Virus record (IMG/VR): IMGVR_UViG_648276647_000009
Direction: 5' to 3' (one strand)
DNA: 4,384 bases
DNA from: a virus
In this document: positions 809 to 1,243 of the stretch, piece after piece
Layout of the letters: every line of letters begins with the position of its first letter
Numbering within the stretch: position 1 is the first letter of the stretch
The notes under the pieces: model-generated
Told to the model about the DNA's origin: nothing
Seen by the model: only the letters and a program-made list of their open reading frames with translations
The model's database searches: none
Translations under genes and position numbers: made by a program

Positions 809-1243
809 TTATTTTTCTTTACCGACCGGTAGAGCTCCCAACGGCAGACCATCAAAACGATGCAGCGAGCCGGAAATAAAACGATACCAGACGCCGTGAC
901 GTTCTGAACCGTTCGCCCAGGAATTTACATCAACCGTTAAATAAACAGGTCTGCCCGGCAAATCAGGGCACGCTCTCAGAAAATCATAATCTTCCTGGTT
1001 ACAGGAAAATTTTTCATATTCTGCACGACGAACCTTTAAACGTTTATCTTCCTGAGGATACGCAATAACAATAGCGTATTTAGGTTTAGCCTCAGGGTCA
1101 TAATGAGAACCACCAGGCTTTAATTCCTCCTCATTTGAGATAACGACATGAATAAAATACCCCGCCATTGTCATTCCGGGAGTAAACCCGTCGGGAACGG
1201 GAAAACCAAAACTGTCATTCACAGGTAAAACATCTTTTTCCAT
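809..1243 (-). CDS. Hypothetical protein, 144 aa; occupies the position of the ssDNA-binding protein (gV) in the canonical inovirus gene order but has no features I recognise
   Basis: Complete ORF in the track, co-directional, starting 17 nt after the rep stop, with a GAGGA RBS-like motif upstream (minus strand GAGGAAAAAAAGA-ATG). No signal peptide or TM segment evident; charged, soluble-looking sequence. Confidence 0.55.
   Translation of the reverse strand: MEKDVLPVNDSFGFPVPDGFTPGMTMAGYFIHVVISNEEELKPGGSHYDPEAKPKYAIVIAYPQEDKRLKVRRAEYEKFSCNQEDYDFLRACPDLPGRPVYLTVDVNSWANGSERHGVWYRFISGSLHRFDGLPLGALPVGKEK

Follow-up and report, generated by a model that had tools for sequence, protein, structure and literature searches.

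The 144-residue protein encoded in the gene V slot of an Escherichia coli filamentous prophage is probably (at about 0.72) the single-stranded DNA (ssDNA)-binding protein of its phage lineage, and thereby the counterpart of the gene V protein (g5p) of the Ff phages. This reading draws on the purifying selection acting on the gene, its fixed genomic position, its co-occurrence with a replication gene (Rep), its mutual exclusion with the PF17426 family, a predicted OB fold of the SSB/PriB type and a local sequence similarity to PF17426. DNA binding by the protein, its cooperativity, its oligomeric state and any translational control that it might exert on Rep are inferences.

Gene order in the window and coding status of the 144-residue protein

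The window, i.e., the whole stretch of 4,384 nucleotides that was analyzed (IMG/VR record IMGVR_UViG_648276647_000009), comes from a filamentous prophage of E. coli M605 (locus L031), located in the ybaE-queC-fadM-ybaV region with a ybaV-like gene on one side and phage genes on the other. Its minus strand presents, in order, genes for an IS110 transposase, a P2 gpA-type Rep, the 144-residue protein, a 48-residue ORF and a 78-residue coat protein, followed by a terminator:

4196..3228, minus strand: IS110-family transposase, 322 aa (PF01548 and PF02371; NF033542, E = 4.5e-55)
3237..1261, minus strand: Rep, 658 aa, a P2 gpA-type rolling-circle endonuclease (PF05840, Phage_GPA, E = 3e-47; phrog_91, "nicking at origin of replication")
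1256..1252, minus strand: Shine-Dalgarno element GAGGA, read from the sequence, upstream of the ATG at 1243
1243..809, minus strand: ORF in the gene V slot, 144 aa, ATG to stop
755..609, minus strand: hydrophobic ORF, 48 aa, in the position of the small minor-coat genes (VII/IX)
608..372, minus strand: major-coat-type protein, 78 aa, with a signal-peptide-like N-terminus (phrog_2186, "virion structural protein", E = 1.3e-11)
355..338, minus strand: terminator-like GC-rich (G-rich) hairpin with a T-run, directly 3' of the 78-aa coat gene

The first-pass annotation had placed an ORF of 144 codons at 809-1243 in the gene V slot of an Ff-type genome. The placement holds, the ORF being on the minus strand with Rep before it and the small coat genes after it; the likeness to the Ff phages extends to the order around this slot but not to Rep, which is of the P2 gpA type, or to the presence of an IS110-family transposase. 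The transposase gene, whose stop overlaps the start of Rep by 10 nt, is context lying outside the ssDNA-binding function. Only 17 nt separate the Rep stop codon (1263..1261) from the start of the 144-codon gene, and this gap holds the GAGGA element, which is set off from the ATG by an A-rich spacer of 8 nt. A further 53 nt separate the end of the gene from the 48-residue ORF, which has no family match in Pfam or PHROGs; small ORFs occupy the same place in the relatives. The hairpin at 355..338 closes a high-expression block headed by the 144-codon gene, mirroring the strong terminator found after gene VIII in the Ff phages.

The encoded protein is identical to EGI16502.1 (UniProt F4SUQ6), the "hypothetical protein ECIG_00005" of E. 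coli M605. Pairwise comparisons with its closer homologues (Nei-Gojobori) yield dN/dS values of 0.12-0.17 at dS of 0.5-1.5. Given these values, and the existence of homologues at 26-88% identity, the ORF is a real gene under purifying selection; the dN/dS values rule out a spurious ORF. Its product, which has neither a signal peptide nor a transmembrane segment in its sequence, had been described as charged: 38 of its 144 residues are indeed K, R, D or E, but they leave a net charge of just -4, with a pI of 5.55 (the family median is 6.4).

Two further features of the window deserve mention. There is a step in base composition near position 1250, the transposase and Rep genes having 51-58% GC versus 36-43% for gene V and the coat genes, which suggests a mosaic origin or unlike constraints on the two halves of the window. 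At the Rep C-terminus (PWTCDNN, 1276-1296, minus strand), a stretch that appeared as "LGLVTIT" in another reading frame is kept in three loci (L026, L027 and L029) in which gene V is otherwise 38-55% identical. This could reflect a conserved Rep C-terminus alone, or else a cis-acting site, the latter being possible because P2 gpA-type origins are located within the A gene.

Distribution, slot conservation and possible mobility of the replication module

A survey of 5,426 complete E. coli genomes turned up the gene in 48 of them, at 121 places, and its Rep likewise in 48, at 123 places; all 17 of the filamentous IMG/VR contigs retrieved via Rep had already been retrieved via the 144-codon gene. 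The gene and the gpA-type Rep form a conserved two-gene module. Conservation in related elements had been put forward as a check: the gene is present in them and tracks Rep one-to-one, and on these strict co-occurrence counts we rejected the earlier proposal that it might be a cargo gene.

The slot is held in homologues down to 26% identity. Thus, an intact metagenomic relative (L033) displays the order Tnp-Rep-144-46-74-542-95-Zot-secretin (numerals being lengths in residues), and a homologue of 26-28% identity occurs in a prophage with the order Rep-131-CoatB-g3-DUF2523-Zot. The slot gene is also present in two IS110-carrying prophages (L035 and L036). Dif-side prophages of E. coli, which lack an IS110 gene, carry the Rep/gene V module too: one is a head-to-tail tandem pair (L001, 1-15504) and another (L002, 8194-15605) adjoins hipBA, the neighbor of dif in E. 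coli K-12, placing this prophage in the dif region. The replication module is therefore common to elements with different integration routes.

None of the fetched loci with the family has a PF17426-like or an M13 g5p-like ORF. Conversely, the loci of the UPΦ type have PF17426 in 12 of 12 cases and the present family in none of the 12, and across 62 loci the two families are mutually exclusive. The co-occurrence with Rep, taken together with this exclusivity, marks the gene as a core member of the replication module, the slot of which is filled by either family. Such one-or-other filling would be anticipated for functionally equivalent genes, but not for cargo.

These patterns bear on a reading in which the protein is a regulator or a host-interaction factor (for immunity, superinfection exclusion or virulence) that merely adjoins Rep. 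Its sequence is annotated nowhere, and its size and charge are atypical for a g5p, as might be expected of such a factor. However, it is one-to-one with Rep and keeps its position at 26-88% identity in phages that differ in their other modules; it displays no signal peptide or transmembrane segment, and the 20 family members compared with Pfam show no helix-turn-helix or other regulator domain. The predicted fold, moreover, is of a nucleic-acid-binding OB type. We consider this reading very unlikely.

The IS110 element merits a description in its own right. Transposases of this type were already known in filamentous phages of Neisseria and Acinetobacter, and NCBI names the family "RNA-guided". 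Upstream of the transposase gene, a region of 188 nt reaching to position 4384 is conserved in four elements (the window, L033, L035 and L036) with 76% column identity. The region has changes that look compensatory (CCATG/CATGG versus CTGTG/CACAG) and a long-range stem, CTCCTAGTGTG...CACACTAGGnAGGG; its minimum-free-energy z-score is just -1.28, and it has no Rfam match. It may represent a bridge RNA or an element end. In E. coli ZH48, ZH49 and 2017.06.05CC, the number of Rep/gene V places of the IS110-carrying relatives rises to 10-11 per genome. The elements of M605 and 2012C-4221 (L036) are at the same ybaV-ppiD site, and one copy in ZH48 (L035) lies between yraR and yhbO. These copy numbers and insertion sites suggest active, site-selective transposition of a whole inovirus.

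Downstream of the window (L031, 11000-14148), the morphogenesis genes of the M605 prophage appear degraded: about 1 kb at the expected position of g3 is devoid of called genes, Zot has 253 residues versus 345-450 in the relatives, and the secretin gene is in pieces. The M605 copy is probably defective for virion production, though its Rep and gene V are intact. The ZH48 inovirus has, between zot and the secretin gene (L035, 13315-14076), a traX gene annotated as an F-type conjugative pilin acetylase, which is unusual cargo for a filamentous phage. Filamentous phages often use conjugative pili as receptors.

Sequence relationships and predicted fold

The sole family to which the protein can be assigned is phrog_30648, of unknown function, which it matches over its full length at E = 2.8e-76, residues 8-144 aligning with profile positions 4-140 of 141; all 20 of the aligned homologues match it as well. 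The earlier remark that the protein has no placeable motif stands up to database searches: there are no matches in Pfam or NCBIfam, and none in the PDB with either the single sequence or a 12-sequence profile. Searches of 50,697 phage records with tblastn and megablast, and of Rfam, gave nothing useful. A word-indexed search of 5.8 billion proteins recovered 15-21 cluster representatives of the family, whereas only nine relatives, and no bridge to a named family, came out of a profile search run exhaustively over 1.84 billion representatives. The named members come from E. coli and Xenorhabdus, and a scan of species-representative genomes added one relative from Salmonella enterica subsp. diarizonae. 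In every source the members are annotated as hypothetical.

From an alignment of 12 close homologues, AlphaFold2 produced a model of too low confidence to use (pLDDT 47.5). Once eight distant members had been added, making a 20-sequence alignment that included members at 27-40% identity, it returned a model with pLDDT 84.4 and pTM 0.73, the five models scoring 73-84. The predicted elements are β1 (24-35), a short helix (38-41), β2 (56-66), β3 (71-80), an α-helix (83-90), β4 (99-110) and β5 (117-122), which is the canonical order of the OB fold, in which a barrel of five β-strands carries an α-helix between β3 and β4; the model can be superposed on SSB and PriB. The predicted OB core spans residues ~24-130, preceded by an N-terminal extension (1-23) with conserved D10, F12 and a PDGF motif at 17-20, and followed by a conserved RFDGxP element and a short, disordered basic tip (138-144). 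The excess in length over the 87-residue Ff protein is accounted for by the N-terminal extension, a long β1-β2 connection, the β3-β4 helix, and the RFDGxP element with the tip. In the alignment, most of the positions that vary little or not at all hold aromatic (F20, F30, W109, W119, Y120, F130) or basic (K53, K55, R129) residues, a composition expected of a face that would bind ssDNA.

In three independent searches the best structural neighbors of the model are SSB, mitochondrial SSB and PriB. The best 50 Foldseek matches in the PDB, led by one at E = 5.6e-4, consist entirely of SSB, PriB and editosome OB proteins, and the named matches among viral models are mostly phage SSBs, including that of the filamentous Thermus phage OH3. 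The predicted likeness to SSB and PriB is at the level of the fold only. The first-pass annotation had offered a divergent ssDNA-binding protein as one of its options, with structure prediction looking for an OB fold as the check; the confident model with OB-fold topology and these neighbors supports that option, and we found no confident match to an unrelated family.

The family profile also matches two PDB entries for aminopeptidase C (5wdk and 3pw3) at E = 0.003, and cruzain and ficin very weakly, through the motif V-x-N-S-W-x-T-x5-G-x-W-Y. It could thereby be proposed that the protein is a fragment or derivative of a papain-like (C1) cysteine peptidase, but we give this next to no credence and reject it as a coincidence of a hairpin motif: the match is limited to that motif and does not extend to a catalytic Cys-His-Asn arrangement or to the two-domain fold, there is no peptidase match in Pfam, there is no room for the catalytic domain, and the Asn is not conserved. 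Nor do papain-like structures figure among the structural neighbors listed for the model.

A relationship to PF17426 (Putative_G5P) also emerged. UPΦ-type contigs, located via a primer sequence published in PMC7307601, encode after gene II a protein of 105 residues that belongs to PF17426 (E = 8e-51); the UPΦ protein has been labeled gene V and is reported to be >85% identical to that of YpfΦ (PMC7307601). The M605 protein itself does not match PF17426 even at E up to 10; however, 9 of the 20 family members match it weakly but consistently (12.2-17.1 bits, below the Pfam gathering threshold of 25), always with residues ~85-122 on profile positions 65-102 of 108. Alignment of the family with 12 PF17426 proteins by hhalign gave a score of 32.5 (probability 66.5%, E = 5.4e-5) over just 34 columns, corresponding to β4-β5. 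Column-shuffled controls had a mean score of 11.5 (sd 2-2.5) and a maximum of 21.6, none of the 273 reaching 32.5, though shuffling also destroys the β-strand periodicity, such that the significance is somewhat overstated. In the reverse direction, a PF17426-type profile picks the most divergent member of the family (P0022) at 18.4 bits, with 15 of 27 residues identical in the aligned hairpin segments (QPVQIPVKPGAWSTGGKEGIWYQL versus KLVQIPVYVRAWSMEGREGVTYNL). Over the N-terminal two thirds, no similarity between the families is detectable. Hence, remote homology to PF17426 is probable and demonstrable solely for the β4-β5 hairpin; this similarity falls short of PF17426 membership for the protein.

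Proposed role and comparison with known systems

Under the reading that we prefer, as an ssDNA-binding protein, the gpA-type Rep would nick the replicative form and rolling-circle synthesis would displace the plus strand. The OB-fold protein, presumably made abundant by the strong ribosome-binding site with which the gene V-to-coat block begins, would then coat this strand, with F30, W109, W119, Y120 and F130, along with K53, K55 and R129, as the likely contacts to ssDNA. The coating would block reconversion to double-stranded DNA, and the coated genome would be passed to the Zot/secretin export machinery, where the 78-residue coat protein would replace the ssDNA-binding protein. A regulatory role might accrue to the protein as well; in the Ff phages, such a role belongs to the ssDNA-binding protein itself. 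Counting against a g5p role are the near-neutral to acidic charge and a likeness that is confined to the level of the fold.

That the nearest folds are SSB and PriB rather than Ff g5p, that the protein is not basic and that it is inherited in a tight module with Rep is what an OB-fold (PriB- or SSB-like) replication accessory of the gpA-type Rep would lead one to expect. Such a factor would not be a stoichiometric genome coat, the progeny strand being coated by the host SSB or another factor; it might load or stabilize the replisome at the nicked origin, or aid ssDNA integration in the manner of RstB for CTXφ. However, like gene V, the gene comes first in the coat-gene block and is preceded by a strong ribosome-binding site, and the intact relatives are without any other candidate for a coating protein. 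A partnership specific to this Rep sits poorly with the resemblance to the UPΦ/YpfΦ gene V family, which pairs with Ff/IKe-type gene II, and a role specific to integration sits poorly with the presence of the module in both IS110-carrying and dif-side elements. We accordingly regard the accessory role as quite unlikely, and a function as the coating ssDNA-binding protein as the better reading.

It is conceivable, if on balance doubtful, that the protein founds a distinct genome-packaging class, characterized by an SSB/PriB-like fold, larger size, non-basic charge, an ordered N-terminal extension and the RFDGxP element. Such a class might assemble on ssDNA in a manner unlike that of the g5p dimer, an SSB-like tetramer being one example, and perhaps serve as a cofactor of the gpA-type Rep or of IS110/Xer-related ssDNA integration.

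The ssDNA-binding proteins of inoviruses have diverged to such a degree that the label hypothetical is attached to most of their prophage copies. The present family, which occurs in Xenorhabdus and Salmonella diarizonae as well as in roughly 1% of complete E. coli genomes, is without a Pfam or NCBIfam model, and a functional assignment would fill this gap and better the annotation of inoviruses. It would also mark a gpA-Rep/gene V module common to dif-integrating and IS110-carrying enterobacterial inoviruses, and add an SSB/PriB-like variant to the known g5p-type structures. The finding introduces no new mechanism and leaves the view of how filamentous phages work unchanged.

With respect to known systems, the genome position and the expected role are those of the gene V protein of the Ff phages (M13/f1/fd; PF02303, 87 aa), which coats the progeny ssDNA, switches replicative-form replication to ssDNA production and has an OB-like β-barrel rich in aromatics. 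The protein differs from it in being 57 residues longer and acidic rather than basic, and the predicted helix at residues 83-90, of the kind typical between β3 and β4 in SSB and PriB, further marks it off. Neither the protein nor the aligned members match PF02303 in Pfam; none of the fetched loci gave a phmmer match to M13 g5p; and Ff g5p is absent among the 50-60 structural neighbors listed for the model, the predicted fold being nearer to those of SSB and PriB. In isoelectric point, too, the protein (5.55) differs from M13 g5p and the PF17426 proteins (~9.2-9.4); E. coli SSB, at 5.44, is likewise acidic overall.

The identity to SSB and PriB structures (PDB 3vdy, 6cqk, 8uzt, 1kaw and 4fdb) is only 7-14%, and none of the 20 family members matches the Pfam SSB family (PF00436) at E up to 10. 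Bacterial SSBs possess a Gly/Pro-rich linker and an acidic tip of the "DDDIPF" type. The present protein is without both: it terminates in ...RFDGLPLGALPVGKEK (ending LPVGKEK), which is basic, and has no acidic SSB-type tip. Unlike bacterial and mitochondrial SSBs and PriB, it is encoded by phages and is limited to a small number of inovirus lineages.

A similar order is seen in the Vibrio inoviruses whose Rep is the most similar (fs2, VFJ and pre-CTX), in which a protein of ~105 residues and then the coat genes come after a gpA-related Rep (29-31% identity); in fs2 and VFJ, as in UPΦ/YpfΦ, the gene V proteins were assigned by position. There is no detectable similarity of the family to fs2 orf104 or the pre-CTX RstB-like protein (hhalign probability <1%), and these two and the VFJ gene V protein (orf104, "ssDNA-binding protein") belong to no Pfam family. 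PF17426, of UPΦ901, YpfΦ and CUS-type inoviruses, occupies the same slot, after the replication gene and ahead of the small coat genes, and likewise occurs in Enterobacterales. Its members have 105 residues and a pI of 9.35 and are paired with an Ff/IKe-type gene II, whereas the protein described here is ~40 residues longer, has a pI of ~5.6 and goes with a gpA-type Rep. The protein is best placed in a new, previously unannotated family among the inovirus ssDNA-binding OB-fold proteins, probably sharing a distant ancestry with PF17426.
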